64,000 nucleotides of DNA, from positions 41,788,001 to 41,852,000 of the forward strand of contig OX597835.1 of assembly GCA_951406725.2 (NCBI GenBank), given 5' to 3'. The stretch comes from Octopus vulgaris. Its lineage: Eukaryota. Below, piece after piece: positions 1,112 through 63,225 of this stretch. Position 1 is the stretch's first letter, and every line of letters begins with the position of its first letter. The notes under the pieces are model-generated. The model saw nothing but the letters and a program-made list of their open reading frames with translations, had not been told where the DNA came from and ran no database searches. Made by a program: the position numbers and the translations under genes.

Positions 1112-1495
1112 TGTTACATTAAATTTCTTATGGAGTTTCCTGTCATTAAACAATGGGTGCTAGTTCTGTACTTTCTTTCTGAACAACCATAAAGATTTGT
1201 TTGTGATAAAATGTTTTGTGTTCACATCAGCTCACTTGCTCCCACTGGCAAATCAAAACTGTCTATAAAAGTGCACAAGTGTGACATGTGACAGATGTCA
1301 AAATGATTGCAGAACAAACATGAAATGAAGTGTTTTGCTCAAGGACACAATGCACTGCATGGTCTGGGAATAGAAACCATGATCTCACAATTATGGGTGC
1401 AACACCCTAACCATTAGGCCATGCACCTATATATATGTATATATATAGGTGAATTGAAGAAATGGAGCTGAACGCAGATTGAACAGAAATCGTTT

Positions 1496-1588
1496 TATTT
1501 CATTCTACACGTGTTTCGAAAGGCACAATTTACCAAAATCCGATTGAATAATGAGACCATATTGTGTCTTTCTCTTCAGGAAGAAATA
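1496..1588 (-). ncRNA. Type I hammerhead ribozyme motif in a Penelope-like palindrome (1448-1719)
   Basis: uuc-CUGAAGA-gaaagacacaau..auugugccuuuc-GAAA-cacgug-UA-gaa; arms of about 115 bp, embedded in (TA)n. Confidence 0.8.
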
Positions 1589-1878
1589 GGAAATCCGTTG
1601 GAATTTATGGTCCCATTATTCAATCGGATTTTGGTAAATTGTGCCTTTCGAAACACGTGTAGAATGAAATAAAACGATTTCTGTTCAATCTGCGTTCAAC
1701 TCCATTTCTTCAATTCACCAATAATATTTTAATTTCAATTATCCGCACCAACGCACGGTTGCAACACCATATGGTTGTACCTCCAACCGTGCTGTTTTAC
1801 TGCTGTGATTTTTGCTACCAAGGTATCGGTTAAACTTTTGATTAATCTACTACAAGATTATTCATCTTTCTATTTCAC

Positions 1879-1913
<35 letters not shown>

Positions 1914-2448: not shown

Positions 2449-2523
2449 ACTGTAGACGCGTTTCGGAGTTAGAGAGATGTGAAAAATGCAAAAACCACAT
2501 TTCCACTCCTCTTCAGTACAGTA
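2449..2523 (-). ncRNA. Type I hammerhead ribozyme motif
   Basis: cugua-CUGAAGA-ggag..cucc-GAAA-cgcg-UC-uacag: canonical core, paired stems I and II, palindromic stem III. Confidence 0.85.
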
Positions 2524-2777
2524 ATTCAAGATTTTAAATTTGAGAGCAGTGGGCAAATTAAAACATACTTATCTGACCAAGCGTCATCAGACAACATACA
2601 TCTAACGACTGACCAGTACTTCCGAATTCAAACAGACGAACGAGATCTTGTATTCCCCCCTCACTCACCCACGTGTGCTAATGAGTAAAATTCTACAGAA
2701 AAAAAAACTATGGTTTCATGCTTCAGGAATTTAGGCACAAAGATTTTCTGCAGGCTCTGCAGTTGTTGAAGTTATAA

Positions 2778-3757: not shown

Positions 3758-4468
3758 CTAAGTAAACATGGAAAGAAAGAGAAATAATAGAGGTTCGTTT
3801 ATAAAGCAGAGGTGGGACATGTTGGCTCTGTACAATATCATAATCTTTTTATGGGTGTTCTTTCCATGGCTCAGGTTCAGTCAAGGAGGCAACCTTGAAA
3901 GATAAAAACTAACAACAGTACATGTGTGGTAAGTAGCTTGTTTACCAACCTCATGGTTCCGGGTTCAGTCCCACTGCATGGCACCTTGGGCAAGTGTCTT
4001 CTACTATAGCCTCGGGCCGACCAAAGCCTTGTGAGTGGATTTGGTAGACAGAAACTGAAAAAAAGCCCGTCGTATATATGTATATATATATATATATGCG
4101 TGTGTGTGTTTGTGTGTCTGTGTTTGTCCCCCTAGCATTGCTTGACAACCGATGCTGGTGTGTTTATGTCCCTGTCACATAGCGGTTCGGCAAAAGAGAC
4201 CGATAGAATAAGTACTGGGCTTACAAAAGAATAAGTCCTGGGGTCGAGTTGCTTGATTAAAGGTGGTGCTCCAGCATGGCCGCAGTCAAATGACTGAAAC
4301 AAGTAAAAGAGTAAAGAGAGCTGAATTCTGACTACTTAAATTTTATCGATATCAAAGACACTGTAGATAGACCGAGTCCGTGGAGCATTGGACAGCTGGC
4401 CAAGATGTTGGTCATTTGGTGCTTGTCATTGCTACTGGGTTGTGTACATGCATACATACACATTCATT

Positions 4469-4549
4469 AGCTTACAGCTGTTTCGGCTGTAATAAACTGT
4501 GCACCCAGAGGTGAGTGCCAGAACAACATTTTATGACTTCATCAGAGCC
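4469..4549 (-). ncRNA. Type I hammerhead ribozyme motif (left arm, stem II decayed)
   Basis: ggcu-CUGAUGA..GAAA-cagcug-UA-agcu on the minus strand; mirror of 4570-4643. Confidence 0.6.
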
Positions 4550-4569
4550 TTAGCATGAAGTCATGTTAA

Positions 4570-4643
4570 GGCTCTGATGAAGCTATATCATTCTGGCACT
4601 CACCTCACGTAACAGTTCCTTATAGCTGAAACAGCTGTAAGCC
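4570..4643 (+). ncRNA. Type I hammerhead ribozyme motif (right arm of palindrome 4350-4789)
   Basis: ggcu-CUGAUGA-agcua..uagcu-GAAA-cagcug-UA-agcc. Confidence 0.82.
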
Positions 4644-5687
4644 AATGGATGTGATTATATTACTCCTGTTCTGTTACTCAATAATTAATGTGTTTGGTGT
4701 GTTGTACGTACGTATGTTTATGCACAACTCAGTAGCAAAGACAAAATACAAACGACCAGCCTCCTGGTCTTCCTGCAGTGTCTTTGATAATTATTAAGTT
4801 TAAATAGACAGGGCTCAGCCATGTACTACAGTAGAGACACACACACAAACAGGCTTCTCTCAGTTTCTCTCCATTAAATGGGCTTACAAAGAATAAGTCC
4901 TGGGGTCAATTTCCTCGACTAAAGGCAGTGCTCCAGCATGGCCACAGTCAAATGACTAAAACAAGTAAAAGAGTATATATATATATGTTTATAAGTGTGT
5001 GTGTGTATGTTTAGAAAGAGAGAGAGAGAAGGCATGTGGCCCAGTGGTTAGGGTGTTGCACTCATGATCAGAAGATCTTGGTTTCGATTCCCAGACCAGC
5101 AGTGCATTGTGTGTTCTTGAGTACCTTCATGGTTTGGTCAGCCTGGGGCTATAGTAAAAGACACTTGCCCAAAGTGCCACGCAGTGGAACGGAACCCATT
5201 ATCATGGGGTTCGGAAGCAAACCTTTTAACCAAAACTGCATCCATCTGTTCTCTTTATGTCTGTCCATCTATTAACCTGTTTATCACTATGATCATGGTG
5301 ACCGACCAGGCTATCAGATGTTGCTACATATCGCTGGTCACAGTGCGCTTCGCATTGTTTTAGCCTTCAAACGATGCCACCCCGTTGGCTAAGCGAGCAG
5401 GCCAACAGAAGAAAGAGTGAGAGAAAGTTATGGCGAAAGGGTACAGCAGGGACCGCCTTCACCCCCTGCCGGAGCCTCGTGGAGCTTTCAGGTGTTTTCG
5501 CTCAATAAACACTCACGACGCCTGGCCTGGGAATCGAAACCGCGATCCTCCAAACGCAGGTCCGCTGCCCTAACCACTGGGCCATTGCACCTCCACAACC
5601 TGTTTATATTCATCTTTGCTTCTCCGTTCACGTGCAAACATCTTTAAAGGAGAAAAAGAAAGTGAGAAAACGGAAAGAGTTACATAC

Positions 5688-8358: not shown

Positions 8359-9115
8359 ATCTAAAGGGAGTTGTTCTCCAGAGACTAACTCCAACAGCAA
8401 ATAACATTTTCACAGCCAAGCCTACCCGAACAAGTTAGGAACAAATGTAAACATCATTGTTTTCTTTTTATTATTACTGTTTTGTGTATTCATAATAATT
8501 TAAAATATTAATTAATATTGCAATATTGAATATAGATTCCTCTATCAATCTTGCAAACTCTACTTAAAGGTCAGAGGTTAAGAGTTCAGTTCTTCTTTGT
8601 CTAAGTCATAAAAAATATTAAAAAATCAATTTTTAAAAAGTGGTTAAGATGGATAACACCTCTTGCTTATGAAGTAGAAGACATTTGCCCAAGGTGCTTT
8701 GCAGTGGGACTGAACCCAGAACCATGTGGTTGAGAAGCAAACTTCTTAATTACACAACTAAGCCAGCATCTACAGTCATGCCTAAAAGTCTACAGCACAT
8801 CCTTGATGCACCTCAGTGCACTGAGATGCACAATAGAGCATCAAAGTGCACCATATGTGACACATCACTGCACAAATGATTCTGTTCATTCATTTATTTC
8901 ACACAGACATTGATCATAACCCCAACTAATTTCTTATTAGTTGCAGAGTACTTTCATTGAATAATTGTCTGAATTAACAAATCAAGACATGTCTTATGAG
9001 GTTCACCTTTTAAGATATGATAAAGCAAAAAGAAGCTCTGGATATTGTTTGCAATGTGCTGGGTGGTGAGGTAGGGCAAGAAGAAAGGGGTGAAGAGTAT
9101 TTGGAATGAACTTAC

Positions 9116-9250
9116 CAAACAAAGGCATTTGCCATCGTTACAGATTCCATGGCCAGAGCAGTTCAATGGACAATGTACCATGTTGCTCTGGAATGTTGAG
9201 ATGTGATCTCTGATTATACTTGTCCAATGTCGTGTAAGCAGTGACGTCAT
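9116..9250 (-). CDS. EGF-domain multi-pass membrane protein, coding exon 1 (MTSLL...CPLNCSGHGICNDGKCLCL)
   Basis: ATG at 9250 with an upstream in-frame TGA; ttcag acceptor puts the exon start at 9305; gtaagt donor after 9116; tenascin-type EGF motif completed by the next exon. Confidence 0.88.
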
Positions 9251-9818
9251 TGTCTTTACAGCAAGCTACCACCTCTACTTTCAAACAAAGTTTAAGATCG
9301 GAAGTCTGAAATATATGTGAAAATAATAAAAAATAAAAAATTAGTATCTGAAATCAGCAATGTCATTATTTTATTACAGTATTTCTGTTGAAGCAACACA
9401 CAGCTTTTGTTTCACTTTATCCCGAAAACAAAGCAGAATTTAATAAAAACAACTTGGTCATCATTAGGTTGGTGTTTTGGAACATAAATTAATGAGCAAT
9501 TTTGATGGAAGGTTTTAATTTAGAACAATTTAAACTGGAACTTTGTATCACAGAAACAAGGGGCAGTTTCAGGAAGGTTTGTATTAAAAGGGTTAAGGTC
9601 TACTTTTCCATGCTTGTATGCATCAAACAGTATGTCAAGGCAGAATTTTCTATAGCCAGATGTTTTTTCTACCATCAGCTCCAACTTGTTTCCAAGCAAG
9701 GGAATAATCTCCCAGTCCACTCAACAACAAATGACCTGGACAAAATTTCGTTACGGACTCCAGACAACTCCATTGTTTACAACCAGTAAGCACGTGAGGA
9801 GTATGAACCCACATTATA

Positions 9819-15004: not shown

Positions 15005-15410
15005 GGATCTTTTCGGTTTGAACGGCAGTTTTTCTAGCGGTGTCATATGAAATTGTCACCCATAATTATGACCCTGGTATCGATCTATTGCATTTCAATC
15101 TGTTTTAGGGTTAGGGGTGGGGGGAAGGGTATCTTTTTTCTTCACAAATGTAAATAAACCCAATCTGTTTCTTAAACGAGGGACATACTCATACGGCACA
15201 GAATGTTTTTTACCTCAATGGACGTCAGTGATTGGTTGAAATTGCAGAAATTGAAGAAAAAAAACAAATATCTTACAAACCATAGAATTTTCTCAATAAA
15301 GCCAAGAGAAAAAGATGTTTTATAAACACATTCTACCAGTATATGAAGTTTAAAATTTTTTAATTACGTGGAAATTATGTTAAAAACTGTCGTTCAAACC
15401 GAAAAGATCT
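15005..15410. mobile_element. MITE M1 copy with 20-bp flanking duplication
   Basis: TIRs; gaggaaaatattcatgtatt on both sides. Confidence 0.9.
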
Positions 15411-15430
15411 GAGGAAAATATTCATGTATT

Positions 15431-16990
15431 TTATGAGGAGCTTAAAAGTATTCTGTCTGTCCCTTTGAATGAGAAGTTGGTTGTGCTAAGTGACCTTAAT
15501 GCACGTGTAGGTAGATACTATGGTGCTTGGAACGTACTTGGGCGTTACAGTATAGGAAAGGTGAACGACAATGGAATGCATCTGCTACAAATGTGCTCTG
15601 AGCTAGGATTGGTTGTTGGGAATACTTTCTTTCATCATAAGTTGAAGCATAAAGTTACCTGGATTCACCCAAGATCAAAACAAGGTCACATGATCGAAGG
15701 CTGACTTACAAGATCTACGCAGTCTCAGCGCATTACGAGGCGTTGATTGTGATACTGATTACAAAATGGTTACGGCCAAGTTCAAGTCCAGGGTCCGCAA
15801 GAAGATTCACAGTGCAGGTGTACGAGTACCAAAGAAAATTGGTGTAGAGCAGGTAGAACAGCCGCTAGTTTTGCGGTTATTTCAGGAGAGATGCAAAGCG
15901 GTTCGCCAAACGTGATCGATAAAATAACTTAGCGGTTCGCCAACGGAGATCGATGAAATAACATTCCATTTTGAAGGTTCGTGGCAATCTTTCCGGTATG
16001 GAATATATAAAATGGGATCAGAGATGTTAGGTTTTAAGAGGAGACAGCACCGAGACTTGTTTGATTCCAATAACACGGTGATAAATGACAACAAAGAGGA
16101 CCACTCATGAAAAACTTCTTGACCCAAACGTTAAGAAAAAAGTGCAACTAGAAAGGTTGTACAAATCTCAGAAAGCAGACTTGCAAAAAGAACTCAGGAG
16201 GCTTAAAGACACTTGGTGGAGAAATTTGTCTGAGGAAGTACAGGCAGCATATGACAGGAAAGACATTGAAAATTTTTATATTTTATTGCAGTAAGCTTTT
16301 GGACCGCAATCTTCATATGTTCCCTTGGAGTCATAAGATGGAAATGAAGTTATTAAAGATCCTACTGGAATAATGAATAGATGGAGAGAACACTTTGCAG
16401 ATCTTTTCCATAATCCGTCCGTAGTGAACATGGATATCATAAACAACATTCCGCAAAGAGAGATGGTGCAACGATACACCTTCCATTGAAGAAGTAAATC
16501 TGGCATTATGTAAACTGAGATCAGGTAAAGCTCGCAGATTGGATGGCATTCCAGATGAAATTCTGAAAGCAGGTGGGGATTGTATTTCATCTGAAATTTA
16601 TAGTCTGATAACTCGAGTTTGGAATGAATCTTCTGTGCCACAGGAATGGATAAAAGGCATTCTAATCTCTCTATACAAGGGTAAGTGCCCAAAAGCAGCG
16701 TGTGGTAATTCTGACGGATAACTCTCCTGCCACATACCGGGAAGATACTTTCAAGGGTCATGTTAGATTGTCTCGTTGAGAATGTATGTCCACATATGAT
16801 TACTGAAGAACAGTGTGGCTTCAGACCTGAGCGAGGAACAATGGACATGATATTTTCTGCGAGGCAGGTTCAGGAGAAATGCTTAGAGGAACAGAGGCCA
16901 CTATACTAGATCTTCATAGATATAACTAAGGCATTTGACACAATAAACAGGGAAGATTGTTTTGTGTAAACTTGGTTGCCCAACATTTTG
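15431..16990 (+). mobile_element. RTE-clade LINE fragment (APE endonuclease to RT), degenerate
   Basis: SDLNARVG, NTFFHHK..VTWIHPRSK, DGIPDEILK, EEQCGFRPERGTMDMIFSARQVQEKC, FIDITKAFDT. Confidence 0.92.
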
Positions 16991-17592: not shown

Positions 17593-18420
17593 CGGTTCGC
17601 CAACAAGATCGATAAAATAACTTAGCGTTTCATCGAAGTAGATCGATAAAATAATCTAGCGGTTCGCCAAAGGAGATCGATGAGATAACTTAGCGGTTCG
17701 CCAAACGTGACCGATAAAATAACTTAGCGGTTCGCCAAAGGGGCTCGATAAAACGGCGGTGCATCAGCATGGCCGCAGCTCTGAGCTGAAACTAGAGAAA
17801 AAAAAATTTGCTTTTACACCATCACATAAGGAAAAAATGCGTTAGTACAGTCTTAACCCCAGGCAGATCTTACGCCAGCTGGTTATAGGTGCAGACTACA
17901 CCCTGTATATATTGCAAGCAGGGAAGCGAACCCCTACCGCCCTCCAGCAGACGACGGAATCACGGAACCGGCTCGGTTTCGGACTATTTCTGCCCATCCT
18001 CTGTCGCTAGGACTCTGGAGCGGACTGTGGCCATTCCTCCAGCGACCGGGTGTTCGCGACTGAGGATGGGCAGAAATAACCCGAAACGGAGTCATCGATA
18101 AAATAACTTAGCGGATCGCCAAAGGCAATCGTTAAAATAACTTAGCAGTTCGCGAAAGCAGATCGATAAAATAACTTAGCGGTTCGCCAAACGCGATCGA
18201 TAAAATATCTTAGCAGTTCGCCAAACGAGATCGATAAAATAAATTAGCGGTTCGCCAAACAAAATCGATAAAATAACTTAGCATTTCATCGAAGTAGATC
18301 GATAAAATAACTTAGCGGTTCGCCAAAAGAGATCGATGAAATAAACTAGCGGTTCGCCAAACGAGATCGATAAAATAACTTAGCGGTTCGCCGGTTGTGA
18401 CCGATAAAATAACAGCGGTT
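17593..18420 (+). repeat. 34-bp minisatellite, two blocks (17593-17755 and 18094-18420)
   Basis: Unit gatcgataaaataacttagcggttcgccaaacga, about 5 plus 10 copies. Confidence 0.9.
18056..18097 (+). ncRNA. Hammerhead-like motif in inverted repeat 17971-18092
   Basis: CUGAGGA-u-ggg..ccc-GAAA-cggag-UC; stem I weak; mirror copy has a mutated core (CAGAGGA). Confidence 0.5.
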
Positions 18421-21400
18421 CTCTCGGACTCTCCCTTGCTCTCTATCTTTCTCCCATTTATAAAAAATTAGATTTCCGCGCCTAAATTATAAATTTCACT
18501 TCCACTTCACCATGTTGAAAATTAGATTGAAATCGGGCAAAATTTGTCCAATGTAGACCCCCAAAAATCAATAAAATCCCCGTTTTCACAGCAAAGCAAC
18601 CACTGTAGTGCCCCAAAATGTTTCCCAATCAATTTCTCACCTCAAGTTACCCACTCCTGTAAATTTTAATCCCCTTCCAGCCCCATTTAGACCCCTTTTT
18701 ACATAAAAATCCAATTTTTATCAACGTTTGTCTTCTTCATTTTACAGAGTAGACATATATACCCGGCCTTGCTCAGGATTAAAATAGTTTATTATTGTTG
18801 TACTTGTTCCGGTATTATAACCCGATTTCATACTAGTCTACGCGTGCCACATTTTAAAAGATGGGGAATTTTGCCCTAGAGGCCTGCATTTTAATTGAGC
18901 AGACTCAAAGCTGCCATGCAAACTCGGCAACCCTTTTAACATAGGTGTGCAATCCGACCACATATGCACACATTATATATATATATATATATACATACGC
19001 ATTAAATATGTACATATATACGCATTATATATACATGTCTACACACACACACACACACATATATATATAAATATATACACACATATATATATGTATACAC
19101 ATATATTTATTTACACACACATATATATAAATTAACACAATATATCTGATTAATAATATCTTTTATGATTGTGCGCTGGTGGTGGACGATAATAATTCGC
19201 CGTTCTAAAAGACCTGTGGCGGGAATACTTAAACTTTTGCGGTTGTCAACACTTTCTCAATATAGATAAAGACAGACGTACAGTGAGAGAGGTGGTGGAA
19301 GAAAGAGTGACAGAGAGACGGCGAAGCTGTCAAACGTCGTTATAGAGAGAAATTGGACGGAAGGGAGGAAAGAGAGAGATCGAGGAAGAGAGGGTGATAT
19401 GCGAAAGAGAGAAACGACAAACACTTGTCAAAGTGTGGGTTTTGTTGCCCTAGTAACCACAGCTTTTGAGATAGGGATTTCTAACCTAGTCCACTCACTT
19501 CCTCGCCTCTTTTTACATGTCCCTGTAAAGTTTGGAGCCAATCCGACCCCATCTAGTGCTCATTAACCCGTTCCATTTGCAAAATCAGACAAACTTTTCG
19601 CATTTCAGCTTTATAGATATTGAATGTATCACACAACTTCAGTTTGTCAATTCATAATAAACCTGTTCTGTGGCAAATAATATAGAAAGCCTACAACTGT
19701 AGACATTGGTATAAAACTGGTCTATGTTTTTGTGAACACATATTATCAGTTTAATTTATAGGAAATTATGATTATTTGTTACCCCGACACTCCTAAATAA
19801 TCATATCTACTTTCACATATCTTTGGGAGGCGAATAAGTGAAATTGGTCCAATCACATTCTGTACTTTTCTATTATATACTTCCTTCTATGCCACACCTC
19901 ACACTCCTCTACCAAGATTTTAAAACAGGTGACTAATCAACAAACCGACATTACACCCTATCACTTATAAGTGTGCGGTTATGCACACCCATCCACCTTT
20001 GTGTACACACACACAAACTTCCTAATTTAGCATACGTTTTTGTTCTTTAATCAAGAATATCCGAATGTTTATGTGCCTGCTTCGTTGTGTGAAGGTGCGT
20101 GGCTTAGTGGCGTATATATATTTACCTCTGGTCCATCACAGGATAACTCATTTTTGCCAGCTGAGTGGACTGGAGCAACATGAAGTGTTTTGCTCAAGAA
20201 CACAACCCGTCGCCCGGTTAAGGAATTGAAACCACAATTTTACGATCAGGAGTCCAACGCCCCTAATCACTAGGCCACATGCCTCTACAGTGTTTGATAT
20301 GATCGACGGAGAACCCATATGTGTGCGCGTGCGCGCGGTTTGTTATCTGTAATCTGTGACAGATGTCGTTTGATTGATGTTTTCTTTGTTTGTGGAATAA
20401 AACAGTTTGCTTAGCAACGAAAGTTCCGACCGCGATACGGCGATAAGCGACATAACATACAATACTGTTCGTTTCTATATTTTCACCCTATAACCCGCTC
20501 GAGTATTTCTATCGTTGTCCCTCGTCAATAAAAGCACTGATGAAAGGGCTTTTCTAAAAGCTACAGTCAGGGTTGATTAAAAAAAAAATCAGGGGTTACT
20601 CAGCAGTGGAGGAACTGGGATCACAAATTTTTACTAATATCAGCCAACAAAAGAGGTTCTAGGAATGGTAGTCAAATCTTCCCCAAATCAAAATCATCAT
20701 CAAAGGCGTTCCAGCCATGACTATTCGATCGATAATGTACTTAGAACTATATAATTCAATCTATTCTTATTTTTAAGACGGTATAATATAATTTAAGAAA
20801 GATTTGGCTGCTATTTCAACCAGTTCTAGTACTCATGTAAAAATTCCCTCAATGGCTTGTATAATTGTTTCGTTTCACCCCAGGTCATCTCTGATCAAAG
20901 GCTTTCCAACCTTGACCATTTTCTATATAAGGAACTACATTAATCAGTGTATTATTCTTTAGTCAACGCAAAAGTTTACTGTGTGTGCAAATTTTAATCT
21001 TTCTTTGCAAAGTGCGCATCGATGAGAGTAACCCTTTTCAATTTGCAGAAATTCTGTTTCATCAGGAAAATCTTGGGTGTGCAATTTCCTTTCTTTGTAC
21101 ACTAGTTGTAAAACGTGTGTGCGCGCAGAGGCGCACAACTTAGAGGAAACCGTGTTCGTGACTAACTTTTTGGTGGGCATCTGTTACATCAACGCAGTCT
21201 GTCGTCACGATATCTTTTATAAGGATTAAATTTATCTTCACCTATTGATGGCTGTTTCCACTGAAACAAGTTCAGGTAAACTCGTGTCTCCCCATCAAGT
21301 TGTGTTCTTGAATATCGAAATTTTCAACATGTCGAACAGGACAGGACCATCTTTGCAGTATTAAAGGACCTTGGGAAAAGTCAATGCACAGAATCCTGTA

Positions 21401-21706: not shown

Positions 21707-23230
21707 TCAGGTCATCCTATAAATTCTGTCCGATTTTACCTTTTTAAAAATTGAATGAAATTTAATAGTATTTTAGAATGTCTAATGGAATTAATAATTA
21801 TTTTTATGCATTTGTGTACATTTAAACTAATTAAACATTATTTCACAGAATAACAGAATTAAAATTTCGTTGATTAAAACCATTTCTAACATGGAAGTAT
21901 CCAAAGAGCATTTAAGGCACATAATGCTTTATGAGTAAAAAAAAGGAAACTCTGCAGCCGAAGCGACTTGAAACATACACTCAGCTTATGGGAAAGAATG
22001 CTTGAATGAAAGAACTTGCAGAAGATGGTTTGCAAAATTCAGAAGTGGAGATTTCAGCCTTGAGGATGAAGCTCGAACAGAACGTCCAGTTGAGTTTGAT
22101 GATAAGCTCCTTAAGGCATTACTTTAAGAAAATCCTGCATTATCAGTTGAAGAATTGGCAATAAAGTTTAGTTCAAACCATACAACTGTTTATCGTCATC
22201 TTCAACAACTTGGAAAGGTTCCTCAACTTGGAAAATGAGTGCTTCATGAATTGTCCGAAAGCAACCGCAAATCCTGAGTTGACATTTGCTCTTCTCTCCA
22301 TTCTCACGAACTCATTTCACCCTTTTTGAATAGATTTGTGACTGGTGACAAAAAATGGATCTTCTACCGAAATGTTAAACGTCGTAAACAGTGGCTTGGT
22401 AAAAGGGAAAAGGCTCAACCACAACCGAGACGGGAACTTCATGGGAAAAAGGTTCTTCCCTCTACCTGGTGGGATTGCAAAGGAGTAATTCACTTTGAAT
22501 TGTTACCACTTAATGCAACAATCAATGCTCAAGTCTACTGTCAGTAATTAGAGCGTTTGAGCCAAGCTTTGAAGGAAAAAAGACCCGCTTTAGTGAATCG
22601 AAAAGGAGTGATGTTTCATCAGGACAATGCGCGATCCCACACTGCAAAGATCACATCACAGAAGATCGAAGAGTTTAGTTGGGAAAAAAAATTCTTCATC
22701 CACCTTATTCTCCCGATCTTGCTCCTTCAGACTACCATTTGTTTCGTTGTTTACAGAATCATTTGGGGGACATAACTTTCGCATAACTTTGGTTGAGCTT
22801 TTTTCCTTTTACCAAGCCACTATTTACGACGTTTAACATTTCGATAAAAGATCCATTTTCGTCATCAGTCACAAGTCTATCCAAAAAGGGTGAAATGAGT
22901 TCGCGAGAATGGAGAGAAGAGCAAATGTCAACTCAGGATTTGCAGTTGCTTTCGGACAATTCATGAGGCACTCATTTTCCAAATTTAGGAACCTTTCCAA
23001 GTTGTTGATGATGACGATGAACAGTTGTATGGTTTGAGCTAAACTGATATTTCAGAGTTCTTCGCTTTGAAACCAAAAGAGTTTTACATTGATGGGATTA
23101 AAAGGCTTGTAAGTAGATGGAAGGAAGTCATAGATAATCAGGGAAAGTACATTGATGATTAAATTTCAATTTAATATAACATTTGATCACTTGTTTTCTT
23201 TATTCGAAATTCGGACAGAACTTATGGGAC
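21707..23230 (+). mobile_element. Defective mariner (D,D34D) transposon with an internal inverted duplication
   Basis: TIR TCAGGTCATCCTATAAATTCTGTCCGA after TA with a partial right copy at about 23207-23230; transposase from ATG 21891 with TGDKKW, FHQDNA, YSPDLAPSDYHLF, RWKEVIDNQGKYIDD; several stops and frameshifts. Confidence 0.93.
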
Positions 23231-23483: not shown

Positions 23484-25426
23484 GGTTAATATAGGGCGTA
23501 ACAAATATCAGAAAATCAAAAAAAAAATGTGTGTAAATAGGTGTAAAACAACTTCCTATGAACGAATATGAAAAAAAAATTCGCGCACGCGAAAGGGGGT
23601 GGGGGAGAGGCCTCGGAAAATTCACATCGGAAAGTTCCGAAAGCGTCTGAGGAGCTGACCCGGGCACCAAAACAAAAAAAAATAGTGTAATATGTGTAAA
23701 ACAACTTGCTCTAAACGAAAATGACAAAAAAAATGCGCTCTCGCGAAAGAGGGGTGGGGGAGAGGCCTCGGAATATTTATATCGGGAATTTCCGAAAGCG
23801 TCTGAACCGGGCACAAAAACAAAAACAAAAACAGCGTAATAGGTGTAAAACAACTTGCTCTAAACGACTATCATGAAAAAAATGCGCGCTCGCGAAAGGG
23901 GGGTGGGGGAGAGGCTTCGGAAATTTCACATCTTCAGTCCACGGCCTTTAAACTAAGAAAAAATAGTGTAATTGGTGTAAAACTACTTGTTCTAAACGAG
24001 TATCAAGAACACACACTCACACATGAATCATAAACTCCGTATTTCGCAAAAAAAAAAAATAAAGAGAAGAAATTCTGGAAAAAGTGAAGAAATGTTGGAT
24101 CTCATTCCTTGGTTAAAGCTATTTTAAACATTAAATTTATGCTTTTCTTTGAAATAGTTCAGATATATGCAATTCTTCTCACTTATTAAGATGCATTTAT
24201 CAGAAAAAAAGAGACAGAAAAAATTATTATTTTGTGTCAATCCTTCCCTAATTATCCTTTATTAATTAGTTTTGGCGTGTATTTTTTTCCCAAATTTATT
24301 TTTTCACCTTTACAACACTGTTTAGTAAAGCAATTAATTATCTTTATAATTTGCATATTTGACTTATTAATCAAAATTCTCTAGATGTAATATATACTAA
24401 GTAATGCATCCTTCATTTATGTGTTCCGTTCTGTATTATGCATGCGTGACTGTTTGTATGTAAGTGTGTTTAACTGTGCACATGAATGTGAATATTAAAG
24501 AACATATTTATTTACTATGATTGTTATTTTCAGAACAAATAAATCTTTTGGCTGTTATGTTATTGATGTTATTATTATTGCTAGTTAAAGGGTGGTGACT
24601 TGGCTGAATATTTTGAGTCTTGTAGTATGTAGTTGTGTTAGTCAATATTCTGAGTTCAAATCCAACTCATTTCTTTATCATCATTATCGATGGACCACTC
24701 AAAGAGGTATGTATACATTATCATTTTCGTAACATAATTTCTGTAGTATTTCAAGATGTTTCTGACACGTATTTTGATTCACATGGCGGAGATCCAACAT
24801 TTCTTCACTTTTTCTAGAATTTCTTCTCTTTATTTTTTTTTTTTTTTATGTACAAAAATACGGAGTTTATGATTCATGTGTGAGTGTGTGTTCTTGATAC
24901 TCGTTTAGAACAAGTAGTTTTACACCAATTACACTATTTTTTCTTAGTTTAAAGGCCGTGGACTGAAGATGTGAAATTTCCGAAGCCTCTCCCCACCCCC
25001 TTTCGCGAGCGCGCATTTTTTTCATGATAGTCGTTTAGAGCAAGTTGTTTTACACCTATTACGCTGTTTTTGTTTTTGTTTTTGTGCCCGGTTCAGACGC
25101 TTTCGGAAATTCCCGATATAAATATTCCGAGGCCTCTCCCCCACCCCTCTTTCTCGAGAGCGCATTTTTCTTTTCATATTCGTTTAGAGCAAGTTGTTTT
25201 ACACATATTACACTATTTTTTTTTTGTTTTGGTGCCCGGGTCAGCCCCTCAGACGCTTTCGGAACTTCCCGATGTGAATTTTCCGAGGCCTCTCCCCCAC
25301 CCCCTTTCGCGTGCGCGAATTTTTTTTTCATATTCGTTCATAGGAAGTTGTTTTACACCTATTACACACATTTTTTTTTTGATTTTCTGATATTTGTTAC
25401 GCCCTATATTAACCCCTATATTAACC
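23484..25426. mobile_element. Foldback-type non-autonomous DNA transposon with about 620-bp modular TIRs
   Basis: Arms 23484-24103 and 24789-25426 are inverted; GG..CC ends; 8-bp TSD AGATGTTA; AT-rich non-coding spacer. Confidence 0.9.
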
Positions 25427-37777: not shown

Positions 37778-37813
37778 CTTTCTGTAGAAGAGCGTAGGCT
37801 CGAAACGTAAAAG
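37778..37813 (+). ncRNA. Minimal hammerhead-like motif, variant core CUGUAGA
   Basis: cuuu-CUGUAGA-a-gagc-guag-gcuc-GAAA-cg-UA-aaag. Confidence 0.6.
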
Positions 37814-43400: not shown

Positions 43401-43674
43401 GGTACTACTTGAGAACAGTGCGCGCACTCGCGTACTCGCGCATCCGAGCTAGCCAGTGATGACTAGTCGATCCATACTTTGTTTTTGTGTTATTTACTGT
43501 TTTAAAAATTATTTACTTTGTGTTTTTGTGATTTATTTACTTTGTTTAACAAAAAAAATTATTTATTTTGTGTTTTATTTACTTTGCTAGGTCGTCGTTG
43601 TAGGATCGACTAGTCATGACTAGCTAGCGAGGACGCGAGTGCGCGCACCGGGACCACTGTTCTCAAGTAGCACC
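43401..43674. mobile_element. MITE family M2 upstream of the OGG1 start
   Basis: TIR ggtactacttgagaacagtg / cactgttctcaagtagcacc; 9-bp TSD GATTTTGAT; CpG-rich arms. Confidence 0.88.
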
Positions 43675-44365: not shown

Positions 44366-44656
44366 GTTACTACTAGCGAACAGTGGTCCCGGTGCGCGTA
44401 CTCGCGCATCCGAGCTAGTTAGTCATGACTAGTGGATCCTTACTTTGTGTTGTGTGTTATTTACTTTGTTTAAAAAATTATTTATTTTGTGTTTTTGTGT
44501 TTTACTTACTTTGTTTAACAAAAATTATTTACTTTATGTAAAAAAATTATTTATTTTGTGTTTTATTTACTTTGCTACGTAGTCGTTCTAGGATCGACTA
44601 GTCACGACTAGATTGCGCGAGTGCGCACACCGGGACCACTGTTCGCTAGTAGTACC
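44366..44656. mobile_element. MITE family M2, second copy, OGG1 intron 1
   Basis: TIR tactactagcgaacagtggtcccggtg; decayed 9-bp TSD tgatcaagc/tgatcaaca; same AT-rich core. Confidence 0.88.
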
Positions 44657-45358: not shown

Positions 45359-45557
45359 TACAAGTGGGTGCTGAAAAGTTTCTTACTTTAAGGGTGTCAC
45401 GAAAGGCCTGGTTGAAGGCCCAACCTGAGTTCTTTTACAGGGCTCAGAAGAATTGATGGATTTGCTGCAATAAGTGTGTGAATCTTTGAGGGGAATATGT
45501 TAAATAAAATCATAATTAACTGATTCTCCTGTATTTTTTGCTATCCAAAGCCAGGAA
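45359..45557. mobile_element. Mariner-type MITE (second copy at about 61452-61640)
   Basis: gggtgctgaaaagtt / aatttttcagcactccc TIRs; internal homology between the two copies. Confidence 0.7.
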
Positions 45558-45633
45558 TTTTTCAGCACTCCCTTGCATGTGTGTGTGTGTGTAATTATTA
45601 TTATTTTCCTTTTGTTTCTTGTCCCCTATGTAG

Positions 45634-46228
45634 ATGGAGCAAGACAAGTCCTTCTACATGGACCGGAGTATTTGCCAGCAAACTATGGCACCTTAAACAA
45701 GAAGAAGAAGACAACATAATGTACCAAGCATCGAGTGGAAACCAAAACGACTGTGAGCAAGAATTAAGGAATTATTTTCAACTCCACATTAGTGTGAAAG
45801 ACTTGTATGAGAAATGGCGTGAAGCTGATCCTGTGTTCTGCAAAACGGTTGGAACCAAACTGCAAGGAATACGTGTTCTACGACAGGATCCTGTGGAAAA
45901 CCTCTTCTCCTTCATTTGTTCCTCAAATAACAACATAGAACGAATAACTTTAATGATTGAGAAACTCTGCTGCCATTATGGAGAGGAAATTGGCAGTTTT
46001 GAAGGGAAACCCTATTATGCCTTCCCCACTGTGGATGCAATGTCTGTGGGTGGTGTTGAAGAAAAGTTAAGGGAACTTGGTTTTGGTTATCGAGCTGGTT
46101 ATATCAGTAAAAGTGCTAAATACATTGCTTCTTTGGAAAATGGTGTCAACTGGTTGTATAACCTTCGTAAAGTGTCATATGAGAATGCTAAAGAAGAACT
46201 TCAAAAATTAACAGGTGTTGGTGCCAAG
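45634..46228 (+). CDS. OGG1: OGG1 exon 2
   Basis: GIRVLRQDPVENLFSFICSSNNNIERI, LRELGFGYRA, HhH motif LTGVGAK with catalytic Lys; tag acceptor, gtaatt donor. Confidence 0.97.
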
Positions 46229-47903
46229 GTAATTACAATAATAATTTTTTTTTCCCCCCATTCTTTTTTGTTGTATTTGAGCGATCTAGAGAACTGCTGA
46301 TGGTTGAGTACAGATCTCTGAATTCAAATCTTTCTGAGGTAAACTTTAGCTTTCATCCCTTCAAAGGTGGATTAGTGGTATTATTATCAGGACATCAGAT
46401 TAGACGTCTCGTAGTATTTGATCCAGCTCTTTGCTTTTAAGTTCATAGGTAGTAGAATTAATCCATTGCCCAGCTTAATACTGCCACCTGATTCTTTGGT
46501 ACTTTTAGCGGAATTCACTCTGTTACAAGATTTTGAGCCAAGTCTCCAGTTTGAGGATAACTGCCTCCCTTTCGCCACACCTGTCTTTGAGGCTCTGCAA
46601 GAATAAAAGGGTCAGGGTACTGACCTTCCCCTCTGGCTAAGAGGCAAAATCAAAAATTCATTTTCCTACCAATAAATACTGGAGTTGATCATTGTTCCTA
46701 CGAAGTCTTTTGATTCAGAAAGGTTGAACTTTCTCTTATGAAACATACCTTTCTATAATTCATATTTGTCCTTTAGCTTAATCATTGGATGAAGGGCTGC
46801 ACCTATTAACCTCTTGTTTGCCTTACAGTCTCCAACATCAATGGGAGGAAGTTAGCAGCAGACCAGAGATCTTGGCCAAATACTTGCAACAGGATGGATT
46901 CTCCTAAAGGCACCCAAGATCCAGGTGGTGGTGCTAAACTGGTCCACAGATTAAACCTAAACCATCCATTGGTACAGACAGTGGTCACAACAAAGCAGGA
47001 AAAAAATTAAATAGATTAAACATTCACCAAATAGTATTTGAAACCCTAAGCCGGTGAGCTGGCAGAAACATTAGCACGTTGGGCGAAATGCATAGCCATA
47101 TTTCGTCTGCTGTTATGTTTTGAGTTCAAATTCTGCCGAGGTCAACTTTGCCTTTAATCCTTTCGGGGTCGATAAATTAAGTACCAGTTACGCACTGGGG
47201 TCGATGTAATCAATCCATTTGTCCTTGTTTGTCCCCTTTGTGTTTAGCCCCTTGTGGGTAGTAAAGAAATAGGTGTTTGAAACCCTCATCTCCTTTTACG
47301 TTCTCTGATGTATTTATTAACCATAAACAAAGCTATGAGCTGAAATATTTCCAACCAAAGTACCACCTAGAAAGCATTCCTGCTGGTGTCACATAAAAAG
47401 CACTGGCACCATCAGTATCATCATCATCATTGTTTAACGTCCGCTTTCCATGCTGGCATGGGTTGGACGGTTCGACCGGGGTCTGGGAAGCCAGGAGGCT
47501 GCACCGGGCTCCAGTCTGATCTGGCATTGTTTCTACAGTTGGATGCCCTTCCTAACACCGACCACTCCGTGAGTGTAGTGGATGCTTTTTACGTGCCAGG
47601 CGAGGCTGGCAACGGCCACGATTGGTTGGTGCTTTTTACACGCCACCGGCATGTGCCATGCAAAAGGCACCCAATGCACTCTGTAAAGTGCTTGGTGTTA
47701 GGAAGGGCATCCAGCTGTGGTAACCAAGCCAAAACAGACAACTGGAACCTGGTTCAGCCCCTGGCCTTGCCAACTCCCGTCAAGCTGTCCAACCCATGCC
47801 AGCATGGAAAACAGACGTTAAATGATGATGGTTTCTTTCCCTGCACAAAAGGATCTCCTGAGATGTTGTTCAAGTCTGTTTTGATTTTCTCTTTCTACCA
47901 CAG

Positions 47904-49933: not shown

Positions 49934-50074
49934 GTGAGTAGCAATTACATATCTATGTATATATATGTCTGTCTATATGTAGACTATACCATACACACAC
50001 ATGCACACACAGAATATTCAAATTACTTCTCCACCACCACACTCATACTCTTGAAAGATTTAGGAATTAAGCTC

Positions 50075-50545
50075 TCCTACACTCCTATTGTTGTTATTGT
50101 CATTCTTCAAAGCCACAGTCGAACCAATTCTACTATATGGCTCAGAAACCTGGACGTTATCAAAGAAGCTTGAGAGGCGGTTGGATGGAACCTACACTCA
50201 CCTCCTTATGAGAGCTCAAAATCTCTCGTGGAAGCGTCATCCAACCAAAGTACAAATATATGGGGAAACTATCACCTGTATCATCTCTTTGAAAGGTAGA
50301 AGAGTCCAGTTTGCTGGACATTGTTGTAGAGGTGAAAACGAGGTAATTTCTTCTCTTCTCCTCTGGAAGCCATCAGCTCGCAATACCAGAGGGTGCACAC
50401 TCTCCTACCCTGATGTAATCTCCAGGAATACAGGCATCCAGCAACAGGACCTCCGTAATGCTATGATGGACTGTGAAGTCTGGCGTAGCATAGTAAATTC
50501 CATTGTTTCGACCACGGTCAAACAATGATGATGATGATGATGTCA
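50075..50545 (+). mobile_element. RTE/RTE-X-like LINE 3' end with (ATG)n tail in OGG1 intron 5
   Basis: FKATVEPILLYGSETWTL, RVQFAGHCCR. Confidence 0.85.
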
Positions 50546-50765: not shown

Positions 50766-51014
50766 AAGCATATTCTGTTGTGCCTGGGGAGAGTCATTTT
50801 CTTTTTGCGCCTTATAAAATTCAACACACTCACCAGTAAAATTTCCACTTATTTCTTATTTTTATTGAGTCAAAACTATTGAAAAGGTTGCAAGACACAA
50901 CGAAAATTTTAGGACAACAAAAATAAGAGAAAAAGTGGAAATTTTACCGGTGAGTGTGTTATATTATAAGGTGCAAAAAGAAAATGACTCTCCCCAGACA
51001 CAACAGAATATGTT
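50766..51014. mobile_element. Palindromic MITE in the last OGG1 intron (half copy also at about 48241-48340)
   Basis: catattctgttgtgcctggggagagtc / gactctccccagacacaacagaatatg. Confidence 0.8.
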
Positions 51015-57972: not shown

Positions 57973-60523
57973 GCCTAGACATTACTGAATAGTGTCTATA
58001 TTTCCACTTTCAGTTTATCACAATATGCAGGCCAGGCTCAAAACTTGGACATTGGGGGGAGAGGTGGCTGCCCAAAAAATGTAAAACACAAATAGATTAA
58101 AGAAAAATTTATTATATTTATCGAGTGAAGACTATCAAGGGCTGCCGGAATGATGCCTGGTGGTTGCATGCAGCCCTGGGAGCTGCAAATGAGAACTGCT
58201 GGCCCAGGCATTACTGAACAAGGATTATATTTCCACTTTAAACTGAAAGAATGCCTCTTACAAAGATAACGCAATTTCAAAATTCCATGTTTTATTAGGA
58301 TAGGTTTCCCGCTGTCACCAGATTTGTCTATTACATCACTCTTTTTCAGTTAGATATTAAAAATCTAAAAATTAACCTTGGCCACTAATTAGGACATCAG
58401 GTTTACAGAAGAATCTCTTGTTTCACTTTCATTTAGAACTCTGAGAATACAATTAATAAAAAAAAGCCTCGTGCTGTATGGGGATGGTCTATTAATAAAG
58501 TCTTATTGTTGGTTTTCACAAAAAGCCATATCACCGGAATTTTGTGACAACACAAATTATGAGAAATATTCTAGAAATAACTTCCTATAAGGCGGTGAGC
58601 TGGCAGAAACGTTAGCACGCCGGGTGAAATGCGTAGTAGTATTTCGTCTGTTGTTAGGTTCTGAGTTCAAATTCCACCGAGGTCGACTTTGCCTTTCATC
58701 CTTTCAGGGTCGATAAATTAAGCACCTGTTATGCACTGGGGTCGATCTAATTGACTTAATCCCTTTGTCTGTCCTTGTTCGTCCCCTCTATGTTTAGCCT
58801 CTTGTGGGCAATAAAGAAATAAGAAATAACATCCTATGCAGCACATTAAAGATGTTCATTCAAACAATGAAATATATTGTGAAATGAATAAGCACTATTT
58901 ATGAAAATGCTGGTATGTGTGCGCATCCCTGGTAATTTTTTTTTTAAATAGCAAAACAGTAGAAAAACGTAGATTGCAAAGCTTAATTCAATAATGAAGA
59001 AATGACAGGTGTTATAGAACATAACTGATAACCCAGTCACCTGGCAAATTAGAGATAATGGTTTGGGTCCTGTCTGTGAACCTGGTTCATTCACCGGTCC
59101 TAAGGTTATGCTGACACTGTCTGTCATTTTATATTGGAATGTTTTTGCAGTTTATCTATAAAAGTACATGGCCATGATGTTGAGGTGTCATGGGTGTGTG
59201 TGTGTTGTGTGATCATCATCATCATCATTTTAATATACACTTTTATATGCTCGCATGATCTAGATGAAATTTGTCAAGGGAGATTTTAATATAATAATAT
59301 AATGAAATTATTGTATTCAGTGCTCAGGTGCACCACAACTTGTCAAAAAGTGCGTATAAAGCATATGCAGAAATGTACAAATGTCTGGGAAGTGAACAGT
59401 GTATGAGTCAGATACATGCTTGCATGTGTATGGAGGGGAGAAAATCAGGTGTAGTGTTGGCAAATCTCAGGAAGCATGGAAGTTTTGAAGGATGCAGTGC
59501 TCCGACAACTAACAACTGATGCCGGCAGTTTGTTCCATATTTCAGCAACTCTCAGCATGAAAAAATGTTTCCGAAAGTCATGGGAGCTGTGCTGTTTTCT
59601 GACTTTGTAAACATGTCCATGGGTGTTAGAAAAGGTGCTCAGAGTTATTGTTTGTAAGATGGTTAATAATTTTATGGGTGTCTGCCAAGTCAGCTGCCAG
59701 ATGTCGGAGTTTCAATTTTCTACAGCTGGATGCTCTTCCTGTTGCCACACTTCACTTGTTTCCATGTAAGGGTAATATTTTCCTCATGGCTGGATGTGTT
59801 TTAACGGAGGATTGGAAATGAAGGACACCACTTGTATGATGGTGATGTTCATTGGCAACTATCAGGTGATGGCTTAATGGTTAGTGTATTCAGCTTACGG
59901 TTGTATGGTCATGAGTTCAATTCCAGGCAGTGCATTGTGACCTTGAGCAAGACACTTTATTTCACATTGCTCCGGTTCACTCAGCCAGCAAAAAATGAGT
60001 TGTACCAGAAATTCAAAGGGGCCAGCCTTGTCACATTCTGTGTCATGCTGAATCTCCCTGAGAACTACATTATGGGTCACATGTCTGTGGGGTACTCAGC
60101 CACTTGCACGTTAATTTCACAAGAAGGCTGTTCCATTGATCAGATCAACTGGAACATCATCATCTTCGTTTAGCTTCCGCTTTCCATGCTAGCATGGGTT
60201 GGACGGTTCAACTGGGGTCTGGGAAGCCAGAAGGCTGCACCAGGCCCAGTCTGATCCGGCAGTGTTTCTACGGCTAGATGCCCTTCCTAACGCCAACCAC
60301 TCCATGGTTGTAGTGGGTGCTTTTTACGTGCCATCTGCACAGGTGCCAGACGAGGCTGGCAAACGGCGACGATCAGATGGTGTATTTTATGTGCCACCGG
60401 CACGGAGGCCAGTCGAGGCGGTGCTGGCAACGGCCACGTTCGGATGGTTCTCTTACGTGCCATCGGCACTGGTAACACTCATTTACATTAGATGGATATT
60501 TGTCCTCATCTTGTTTGTTGTTA

Positions 60524-60567
60524 ACACAACATTTCAGCTGATATACCCTCCAGCCTTCTTCAGGTGT
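60524..60567 (-). ncRNA. Minimal hammerhead motif in partial palindrome 60481-60640
   Basis: acac-CUGAAGA-a-ggcug..cagcu-GAAA-ug-UU-gugu; CpG-decayed. Confidence 0.6.
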
Positions 60568-63225
60568 CTTGGGGAAATTTTGAAACTGGGTTCTCATTCC
60601 AACAAACAAGTTGAGGACAAATATGCCTCAAATGTAAATAATTCCTCATCTCTTAAATATAGAACTGGAACACTCATTGTTGTAACTGATAAAGTGCTAG
60701 AAAATGTGGTCTTGTCAAGACAAAGACACACAGACAGATAGACACAAGCATACAATGGCCTTCTTTTGCTTCCATCAGCTAAATTCGCAAGGTTTTGGTT
60801 AGCCCAAAGCTTATAGCAGGACACTTGCCTAAGATGCTACCCAAAGGGACCAAACCTGGAACCATGTGTTTGGGAGGCAGTCTAGGGGCATTGTGGGAAG
60901 GAAGGGATCTTTTGTAATGTTTGTTCTGAGTTGTGGAATATATTTTAAAGAGATGAAAGAAAAAGAAACACAAAACCCTCTTCACATTATTTTCTATGTC
61001 ATCATCATCATCGTTTAACGCCCGTTCTCCATGCTAGCATGGGTTGGACGGTTTGACCGGGATCTGGCAAACCAAAGGCTGCACCAGGCTCCAGTCTGAT
61101 CTGGCAGTGTTTCTACAGCTGGATGCCCTTCCTAATGCCAATCACTCAGAGAGTGTAGTGGGTGCTTTTTACAACATGATGCCAGTGATAAGAAATGAGG
61201 TAAGAAAAGCAGTTTCACCAGGTTTGGTTGAAGTTGTGAAATGGTTGCTGTGGACTATTGCTCTGTGTCTGTCGAGAGAGTGAACCTTGCCTTCATTTGG
61301 TTTGCTGATATCACAGGTCATCCCAGATCAATGTTTGTACGTCATGGAATGCCAGGGACATCAATGACTGGTAACAGGGTTGCAATTCTTATCAGACACA
61401 TTCTCAGTTTTTATTATGATATGATTCAAAATAGTACAAAATAAACAAAAAAACAAGGGGGGGTGCTCAAAAGTTCCTGACTTTAAAGGTTATCATAAAA
61501 AGCCTGGTTGGAGGCCCAATCTCCTGAGTTCTTTTACGGGGCTTAGGAAAATTGAAGAACCACTGCAGTAAGTGTGTGAATCTGAGAGGGGAATATCATT
61601 AACCGATCCCCCTGTATTTTCTTTTACTCAAAGCCAGGAACTTCTCAGCAACCCTTCGTATATATATGTGTGTGTGTGTGTGTAGAAACTTCCCCAAGTG
61701 AAAATGAAACTGTCCAGGTTGATTTTAAAAGCTTCCACAGCATACGAGAAGTGATGTAACTGAAATTGAACCAAAATCACTTAAAACTTCAGTCTGCCGG
61801 AAGCTTTTTGTCCCCGGCCACTTCTAAATCAGGAAATGAGTCATTGAAATACATAGTTAGTCATGGTTACAAAGGTTGGTTCAATAACAGATTAGACTGA
61901 CGCCGTTTTATCTATTAATAACTCTGTTACAAATAGCATTTGTTGTCCACAAGATAACAGGTTTCACAAGAGAAATGGTTATCTTCCAGACATCTTCATA
62001 AGTTTTAAAGTACCCAAAGATTTCCTGTTCACTTGGTATAGAATGACCTTCTTGTTCAGATTTATCTATGGGCACAGAGGTGTGGTTAAGAAGTTTGCTT
62101 CTCAACCATGTAGTTTTGTGTTCGTTCCCACAGCATGGTACCTTGGGCAAGTGTCTTCTACTATGGTCTTGGGCCAGCCAAAGCTATCATCATCATCATT
62201 TAACGTCCGCTTTCCATGCTAGCATGGGTTGGATGATTTGACTGAGGTCTGGCGAACCAGACTCCAATCTGATCTGGCAGAGTTTCTACAGCTGGATACC
62301 CTTCCTAATGCCAACCACTCTGAGAGTGTATTGGGTGCTTTTACATGCCACCGGCACGAGGACCAGTTTGGTGGTACTGGCAACGGCCACACCCAAATGG
62401 TGCTTTTTACGTGCCACCTGCACTGGCGACGACCTCGCTCGAATATTTCACATGCTGAATTTTGTAGGCAGAAACTTGAAGAAGCCCATTGTGTGTTAGG
62501 CGCAGGAGTGGCTGTGTGGTAAGTAGCTTGCTAACCAACCACATGGTTCCGGGTTCAGTCCCACTGCGTGGCATCTTGGGCAAGTGTCTTCTGCTATAGC
62601 CCCGGGCCGACCAATGCCTTGTGAGTGGATTTGGTAGACGGAAACTGAAAGAAGCCTGTCGTATATATGTATGTGTGTGTGTGTTTGTGTTTGTCCCCCT
62701 AGCATTGCTTGACAACAGATGCTGGTGTGTTTACGTCCCCGTCACTTAGCGGTTTGGCAAAAGAGACCGATAGAATAAGTACTGGGCTTACAAAGAATAA
62801 GTCCCGGGGTCGATTTGCTCGACTAAAAAAGGCGGTGCTCCAGCATGGCCGCAGTCAAATGACTGAAACAAGTAAAAGAGTAAACAATAAAGACAGAGTA
62901 GTTGGCTTATATACTCTTTTACTTGTTTCAGTCATTTGACTGTGACCATGCTGGAGCACTGCCTTTAGTTGAGCAAATTGACTAAAGGACTTATTCCTTG
63001 TAAGCCTAGTACTTATTCTATTGAATTCTTTTGCCGAAATGAGTGTGTTCATGGAAATTTGGTTGCTTTTTCTTGTAAATCAACGAACAGCATAGAGGTT
63101 TCATTTTGGTTTATCTCGTGCTTTGTCACAATGATTTAGCAAAATTACCCACAGGCATCATTTATATAAAGAAAATATAAGTCACGCTACAGCTGTCATA
63201 TTTAACATAATGAGGAAACCAAATA

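Follow-up and report, generated by a model that had tools for sequence, protein, structure and literature searches.

Minimal hammerhead ribozymes are known from the pseudo-long terminal repeats (pseudo-LTRs) of metazoan Penelope-like elements (PLEs), where solo motifs are regarded as probable truncated PLEs and dimer activity is low; pairs on opposite strands, 100–700 bp apart, and an extreme variety of motifs within one genome have been published in the same work (PMC4209133, Cervera and de la Pena 2014). According to the accessible text of the respective papers, PLE insertions show an inverted, 5'-truncated copy, a tail of 30–40 bp and a bias towards microsatellites (PMC8557442, Craig et al. 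2021), and an anole PLE studied in vitro starts reverse transcription internally, uses uncut RNA as its main template and has a ribozyme that cuts only with protein (PMC11167929, Frangieh et al. 2024). Retrozymes are organized as head-to-tail repeats of 150–450 bp (PMC7229834, Cervera and de la Pena 2020; bioRxiv 10.64898/2026.07.22.740005). For Octopus vulgaris, 31 recently active PLE families have been described (PMC13282606), and the word ribozyme is absent from the main text of that paper. This study focused on hammerhead-like motifs in a stretch of 64,000 nucleotides of the O. vulgaris genome (contig OX597835.1, positions 41,788,001 to 41,852,000, forward strand), referred to below as the window.

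By their predicted folds, the window holds seven clear hammerhead loci in about six families and one doubtful locus. The most probable reading, to which we give roughly 0.78, is that they represent pseudo-LTR ends from several endonuclease-bearing PLE families, inserted by the reverse transcriptase of the element itself and now largely inert. As a class these hammerheads are already known, and most of what is described here is the published pattern.

Hammerhead loci and their folds

The loci are lettered A to H by position, D being the doubtful one, and a sign marks the strand where both carry a motif. Complete type I folds, comprising the core, stems I and II, a palindromic stem III and UH, were found for A, B, C+, E, F-, F+, G and H. 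The core is exact in A, B, C+, C- and H, and has a single change in E, F- and F+ (U4C) and in G (A6U).

Locus A (1439–1727) has its hammerhead on the minus strand (C3 at 1579, H17 at 1506), with core CUGAAGA, a 55-nt stem II and the stem III ACACGUGU. Locus B (2449–2772, minus strand) is a single hammerhead (C3 2516, H17 2455, core CUGAAGA, 6-bp stem I, stem III ACGCGU) that extends about 255 nt upstream to a (TA)n/(TG)n array, while its 3' end is not fixed. Both strands of locus C (4332–4807) carry a motif: the fold of C+ is intact (C3 4574, H17 4639, stem III ACAGCUGU), and C- (C3 4545, H17 4473) has kept its core, stem I and stem III and has a decayed stem II. Locus E (29122–29302, plus strand) is a 181-nt insert in (TA)n with its hammerhead at 29156–29190 (C3 29160, H17 a U at 29186, core CCGACGA), an extra A ahead of stem II and the stem III ACGU. 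It is followed by locus F (29317–29512), where two hammerheads lie on opposite strands (F-, C3 29388 and H17 29359; F+, C3 29441 and H17 29470), both with core CCGACGA, a GNRA loop II and stem III ACUC-A-GAGU; the right copy has a one-sided 3' extension of about 66 nt on the plus strand (29513–29578), with (TA)n beyond it. Locus G (37650–37908, plus strand), also an insert in (TA)n, has its hammerhead at 37778–37813 (C3 37782, H17 37809, core CUGUAGA) and stems II and III as in E; E and G can be aligned along their length and are relatives. About 290 nt upstream (37310–37359, minus strand), adjoining a TA run, the 5' part of G is repeated in inverted form. In locus H (60481–60639) the hammerhead is on the minus strand (C3 60563, H17 60528, core CUGAAGA), and its fold includes two G-U pairs, apparently the result of CpG decay.

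Locus D (17970–18093) has core-like boxes on both strands, CUGAGGA at 18060 (plus) and CAGAGGA at 18003 (minus), but neither arm has a stem I and stem III is non-palindromic. It is flanked by two arrays of a 34-nt minisatellite, of which there are three in the window (15897–15962, 17593–17753 and 18094–18421). The start of the last array directly follows the position that would be H17 in D, where the sequence is similar to the repeat unit. The unit length equals that of the Drosophila Penelope terminal repeat (PMC2377424, accessible text), possibly by coincidence.

Two further observations concern single motifs. At 37745–37790 (plus strand) CUGUAG is directly preceded by a long pyrimidine tract, which makes the A6U core of G resemble a 3' splice site; introns of Drosophila PLEs are described as ending close to the ribozyme (PMC4209133). 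At 36530–36650 (plus strand) the remains of two hammerhead-like halves, GAAA-CCGG and CUGAUGA ... GAAA-CGCG, follow each other in the same orientation, the first being truncated where another repeat ends; their stems are unclosed and they were left uncounted.

Stem III is self-complementary in nine of the eleven copies examined, the exceptions being both D copies, and its predicted self-duplex ranges from -1.7 to -11.1 kcal/mol, with +2.6 for the decayed H. An extra base between A9 and the pair G10.1-C11.1 is present in E, G and H and missing from A and B; in C and F, this A has U11.1 as a possible partner. Short stem I, the extra base after A9, and a palindromic or minimal stem III (15.2–16.2) are all traits of the type I minimal hammerheads of PMC4209133, as are the mostly solo occurrence, the opposite-strand pairs and the many unrelated families per genome, and the molluscs Lottia and Crassostrea are included there. 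Unlike the octopus motifs, the cores given in the accessible parts of that paper are CUGANGA or U3-A8, not C4 or U6, and stems II measure 4–8 bp, compared with 45–55 nt in octopus A, B and C.

The descriptor used to estimate chance expectation (core with at most one mismatch, stems I and II of at least 3 bp, palindromic or short stem III, UH) was written after the motifs had been seen, and its exact-core setting is the one least affected by this. With one core mismatch it gave nine matches, two of them weak and unlisted, against 0.68 ± 0.68 (maximum 2) in 25 dinucleotide shuffles done kilobase by kilobase, and one match in the reversed window. The exact core gave four against 0.04 in shuffles, and stems I and II of at least 4 bp gave four against none. 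A scored scan that allowed G-U pairs returned eight matches at a score of at least 18, H among those recovered, against 0.5 in eight shuffles. Unlisted matches at 16230, 21957, 13636 and 23937/24963 were judged to be chance, having weak stems or a broken GAAA; the one at 13636, from the scored scan, has a broken GAAA and is probably false. A plain search for CUGANGA-N6-40-GAAA was uninformative (seven matches, just two at listed loci). Rfam misses every hammerhead of this octopus window: scanned with E up to 1, it placed no hammerhead model among its 25 matches, and its microRNA matches are repeat artefacts.

A first-pass annotation of the window had placed hammerheads at ten coordinates, and every one of these does mark a hammerhead-like motif. 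The motifs are indeed minimal hammerheads of type I, of the kind found in PLE pseudo-LTRs, and they belong to several multi-copy families (see below). Some of its detail needs adjustment. The CUGANGA core that it described as retained is present in six of the ten copies and replaced in the other four, by CCGACGA in E, F- and F+ and by CUGUAGA in G; the motifs are not all unrelated, given the kinship of E and G; and the density, put there at roughly one per 7 kb, comes to one locus per 8–9 kb.

Insertion anatomy and related families

Five loci consist of head-to-head arms with their 3' ends outward (the first-pass annotation had noted inverted pairs), the arms being 87% alike in A, 75–78% in C, 97% in F, 69% in H and 72% in D (17972–18091); the pairs of C and H are old. 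They are not always pairs of hammerheads, however, as the second arms of A and H have been cut short and have no core. The right arm of A begins inside stem II, and the other arm of H is a 3' part only, beginning behind the cleavage site, which indicates that each arm was truncated at its 5' side independently. In C the two arms begin 7–10 nt ahead of the core. The window copies of A, E, F, G and H extend 26–130 nt upstream. The microsatellite association that had also been reported applies to five of the eight loci, with (TA)n at the ends of A, E, F and G (in A, the left end) and at the 5' end of B, but not to C, D and H. At four of eight loci the cleavage site is no more than 150 nt from a (TA)4+ run, compared with 14.6% of the window (P about 0.02), and at six of eight no more than 350 nt (P 0.008).

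The idea that such inverted pairs supply the dimers in which minimal hammerheads cleave was rejected, because the ribozymes of an inverted pair are on opposite strands and cannot form a dimer, and the whole palindrome folds as a long hairpin. The predicted pairing probability of stem II falls to 0.00 in the whole palindromes of A, C and F, compared with 0.89, 0.30 and 0.15 in isolation, and for H it is predicted at 0.00 in the whole palindrome and 0.01 in isolation. Since palindromes would lock their ribozymes and monomers have no stable stem III, these folding models suggest that the genomic stubs are probably silent as ribozymes, and that activity matters in the parent transcript.

Contigs of other individuals from three sequencing runs, X1, X4 (filed under another organism code) and X9 (possibly RNA, but not taken as a sign of expression), were aligned to 29121–29560, giving 17,516, 12,700 and 3,118 aligned contigs, respectively; these thousands of variants mean that the E and F families are multi-copy, although the summed depth is no copy number. 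Variable letters occupy 24 rows across this region, and within the motifs those reaching at least 5% are mostly at tolerated places. In E, position 4 changes from C to U in 36–38% in all three runs; H17 varies from U to C (4–25%) and from U to A (3–11%), with no row for G; position 16.2 varies in 2–8%; and in stem I a G-to-A change of up to 7% is accompanied by C-to-U in its partner of up to 13%, next to an A-to-U row of up to 13% that would break a pair. Decay of a CpG was rejected as the source of U4 in E, as the C-to-T change stands at 36–38%, the paired G-to-A has no row and other CpG sites are below 8%. In the F motif, variation affects N7 (17–64%), the GNRA loop (GCAA to GGAA, 18–41%), position 11.1 (15–28%) and the unpaired centre of the stem III palindrome (4–8%); position 4 has no variable row, so that C4 is the norm among copies similar enough to align. 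From these alignments, C4 appears as the main state in both families, and the variation is the pattern expected of master copies kept foldable, which is a weak test of core against flank.

The same contigs bear on how the copies end. Upstream of 29151 the depth in E drops about 15-fold, and F tapers to near zero upstream of 29421; long contig pieces begin at 29151–29152 in E and at 29432–29438 in F, which is 8–9 and 3–9 nt before C3, respectively. Of the 15 joints shown for X1 and X4, at least eight connect the left and right arms of F; the point of connection differs between them, and several contain additional letters. Some F copies stop at 29512, ahead of (TA)n, and others continue through the tail, where the depth continues (29513–29578).

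A family for comparison, with PLE coding sequence, came from metagenome contigs. A pattern based on the build of E and G was found there at no fewer than 120 loci, in contigs in which the exact E/G motif had no match, and a general hammerhead motif had no match in viral contigs. Fig. S3 of PMC4209133 shows the motif of this family as that of the Acropora PLE (accessible supplement), and all coral counts in this paper are among the matches listed. They include 129 motifs, 88 with U4 and 41 with C4; H17 is not G in 128 of the 129, and stem I, which lay outside the search pattern, has at least 3 bp in 99 of 126. Coding remnants upstream belong to proteins with RVT_1, PF26215 and GIY-YIG, some of them coral-named, and the coral PLE proteins have the Cys-rich linker given for Neptune and Nematis in PMC8557442. 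Such coding sequence lies upstream on the same strand in 19 of the 94 copies with 300 nt of room, and was kept in 6 of 28 C4 and 13 of 66 U4 copies. A diagnostic letter further downstream goes together with C4 (34:1 versus 22:29, P 5e-8), which thus marks an amplifying coral subfamily.

Coral copies have a sharp 5' edge. Of 104 main-family copies, 84 begin 0–18 nt before C3, 45 of these at 6–8 nt, with the mode unchanged when one copy per locus is counted. The pattern required a whole core, so shorter copies are invisible to it, but the counts peak at 7–8 nt instead of declining from 0, which suggests that the 5' edge is a defined one. An inverted copy lies directly upstream of 45 of the 84 short copies, and 12 of 20 long copies have a TATA-like word at -38/-39, about 30 nt ahead of the usual start. 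The edge may be a transcription start. The octopus starts (8–9 nt before C3 in E, 3–9 in F and 7–10 in C) fit an edge of the coral type without proving it. Coral 3' ends cluster at about 60 and about 120 nt. Nine coral-type PLE copies (L001, L022, L039, L045, L089, L090, L094, L096 and L101) occur in two-ribozyme palindromes like that of F, with 10–45 nt between the cores.

Origin of the inserts

The octopus inserts resemble published PLE insertions (PMC8557442, PMC11167929) in their head-to-head truncated copies, one-end tail and (TA)n ends. They differ in the length of the tail, about 66 nt in F and about 60 nt in the coral family compared with 30–40 bp, and in the sharp 5' edge just before the ribozyme, which was not found in the accessible text of either paper. 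The observation is real and mostly known. A likely course of events can be outlined. An intact PLE would be transcribed from its own pseudo-LTR, as described in the accessible text of PMC2377424, and cleavage by its ribozyme would require a dimer or the help of protein, whereas the long hairpin of a palindrome would lock the ribozyme. The PLE protein, in octopus presumably, would nick AT-rich or (TA)n DNA, and reverse transcription would start at one of two internal sites 40–110 nt behind the cleavage site, resulting in the optional tail. The inserted copies span the cleavage site, which means that the template RNA was uncut; it would be copied through the ribozyme until synthesis stopped early, often no more than a few nucleotides to some tens of nucleotides upstream of the core. 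If the same happened on both DNA strands and the two 5' ends were joined, palindromes would result, and otherwise single inserts.

PLE coding sequence was searched for in the window in two ways. Pfam, applied to 342 stop-to-stop pieces (at least 55 aa, of sufficient complexity), found no GIY-YIG or PLE domain, but it also missed a true PLE endonuclease (L029), and for that reason the window was searched again with PLE proteins. Neither tblastn with 120 of them nor a profile of the 27 longest gave anything credible, the best E values being 0.005, in a low-complexity stretch, and 0.13; the queries represent one clade, and other PLE clades are less well covered. The earlier statement that no reverse transcriptase or GIY-YIG frame lies nearby is borne out for PLE frames of the clade covered, and not for reverse transcriptase in general, as a LINE-type (long interspersed nuclear element) remnant is present (RVT_1 at 16715–16906, E 0.005, Pfam).

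Several points weigh against a PLE origin as proposed here. No octopus copy is joined to a PLE frame, and the putative link rests on the shared build and the coral family; the contigs aligned to E and F have too little sequence upstream to show such a frame. In the coral family there is no preference for TA runs (4 of 95). A raw-read run, X22, aligned only eight reads, none of them on E, a misfit with very high copy number, in an alignment that skipped repeats and filtered reads. The flanks, like the motifs, have few variable rows (three in 29191–29249). Finally, the E family shares, at its loose ends upstream, a pyrimidine-rich sequence unlike that of the window copy, and E may be a discrete short element.

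This last point leads to the best of the alternatives, in which E/G and F would be true non-autonomous elements, with short master copies that have their own promoter, are transcribed and are moved in trans by PLE proteins. The sharp drop in depth upstream of E and F and the defined starts of the long pieces speak for it, as do the eight octopus loci without a PLE frame, and non-autonomous PLE derivatives are known (MRC1, PMC8557442; bioRxiv 10.64898/2026.07.22.740005; accessible text of both). Yet the coral family, which codes for a PLE, has the same sharp edge, and the upstream part with the TATA-like box is lost in 84 of its 104 copies. Because only 19 of 94 coral copies keep PLE coding sequence, finding none in eight octopus loci has a probability of 0.16 at that rate and needs no separate non-autonomous class. 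The dedicated population of non-autonomous retroelements proposed in the first-pass annotation is therefore not needed, truncated copies or short by-products of autonomous PLEs explaining the picture, and we regard this alternative as unlikely.

Could the palindromes instead be miniature inverted-repeat transposable elements (MITEs) or other fold-back elements that look like hammerheads by chance? The window does have palindromes without hammerheads (at 62753, 50769, 30829, 44368 and 43401), but the shuffle statistics, the unequal arm lengths, the varied junctions, an H17 that is never G and the variation at neutral sites make this highly improbable, and it may hold for locus D alone. Least tenable of all are the non-LTR retrozymes raised in the first-pass annotation, tandem hammerhead units that release circularizing monomers: although the octopus elements resemble them as non-coding, PLE-related carriers of a type I hammerhead with a weak stem III in animals, molluscs have retrozymes (PMC7229834) and one X1 contig joint goes from 29209 back to 29153, that joint can arise from two similar pyrimidine tracts, the 3–6 bp stems I and long or bulged stems II are of the PLE minimal type, and no hammerhead was found inside any tandem repeat of the window, the pairs being inverted and head-to-tail hammerhead units absent, so that for this window the idea is largely refuted.

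Sequence context and meaning for Penelope-like elements

Simple and interspersed repeats are abundant in the window, which has a G+C content of 38.7%. A long host exon at 45524–46300 (plus strand; also delimited as about 45630–46270) codes for the OGG1 DNA glycosylase and is 97% identical to a protein named for O. vulgaris, the runner-up being Argonauta at 72%. Another host exon, at 8957–9265 (minus strand), encodes EGF repeats of the tenascin/teneurin type. Decayed LINE pieces (endonuclease, reverse transcriptase and C-terminal parts) lie at 15384–16906, 29612–30097 and 50064–50528. A mariner remnant at 22165–23045 carries 190-nt inverted repeats, and Pfam recognized Transposase_1 at 22278–22544. 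The hammerhead-free palindromic repeats (43401–43674, 44368–44654, 30829–31108, 50769–51012, 62753–63038, 47425–47830 and 23536–25386) comprise a MITE-like family present in two copies, further fold-backs, and common interspersed repeats paired head-to-head.

With respect to the literature, the search made for this study found no report of octopus hammerheads, C4 families or a sharp 5' edge, although Lunse et al. 2017, which surveyed these variants most extensively, or the supplement of PMC7229834 may contain U4C or octopus cases. No cephalopod is included in the text and readable supplement of PMC4209133, and PMC6765202 and PMC11014351, as far as their accessible text goes, held nothing further on the topic. 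U4C occurs naturally in one viroid, where it is slower in vitro and sufficient in vivo, and A6C in a phage (PMC3088659, Perreault et al. 2011); A6U is not named in the accessible text of that paper. Those core variants are single rare cases, whereas C4 in octopus is the majority state of multi-copy animal families.

It is tempting to go further and speculate that PLE transcripts start about 7 nt before the core, with reverse transcriptase, once started at the first internal site, running off this end to leave large numbers of ribozyme-sized stubs of fixed length; that octopus is among the most hammerhead-dense animals; and that the slowed U4C core was adopted independently by amplifying PLE lineages in two phyla. 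Taken together this is a tentative and rather doubtful proposal. The density it uses, 110–125 per Mb or about 3 x 10^5 in the 2.8-Gb genome (PMC13282606), supposes that the window is typical and comes from one window chosen for its richness, and the counts of about 4,000 in coelacanth and 9,000 in Xenopus were obtained with a stricter descriptor (PMC4209133).

With the present loci, cephalopods join the animals with PLE hammerheads, none having turned up in the literature search for octopus or cephalopod hammerheads. The role of these ribozymes is treated as an open question in the accessible text of PMC8557442 and PMC11167929, and it is here that the copies spanning the cleavage site, and the U4C families that keep the NUH rule, have a bearing. 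The U4C families also provide natural matched pairs of C4 and U4. If the sharp 5' edge is where transcription begins, the great excess of solo stubs over coding copies would be explained. Should fixed-length stubs and the adoption of U4C in two phyla both prove true, it would mean that PLEs have been selected for weak, protein-gated cleavage.

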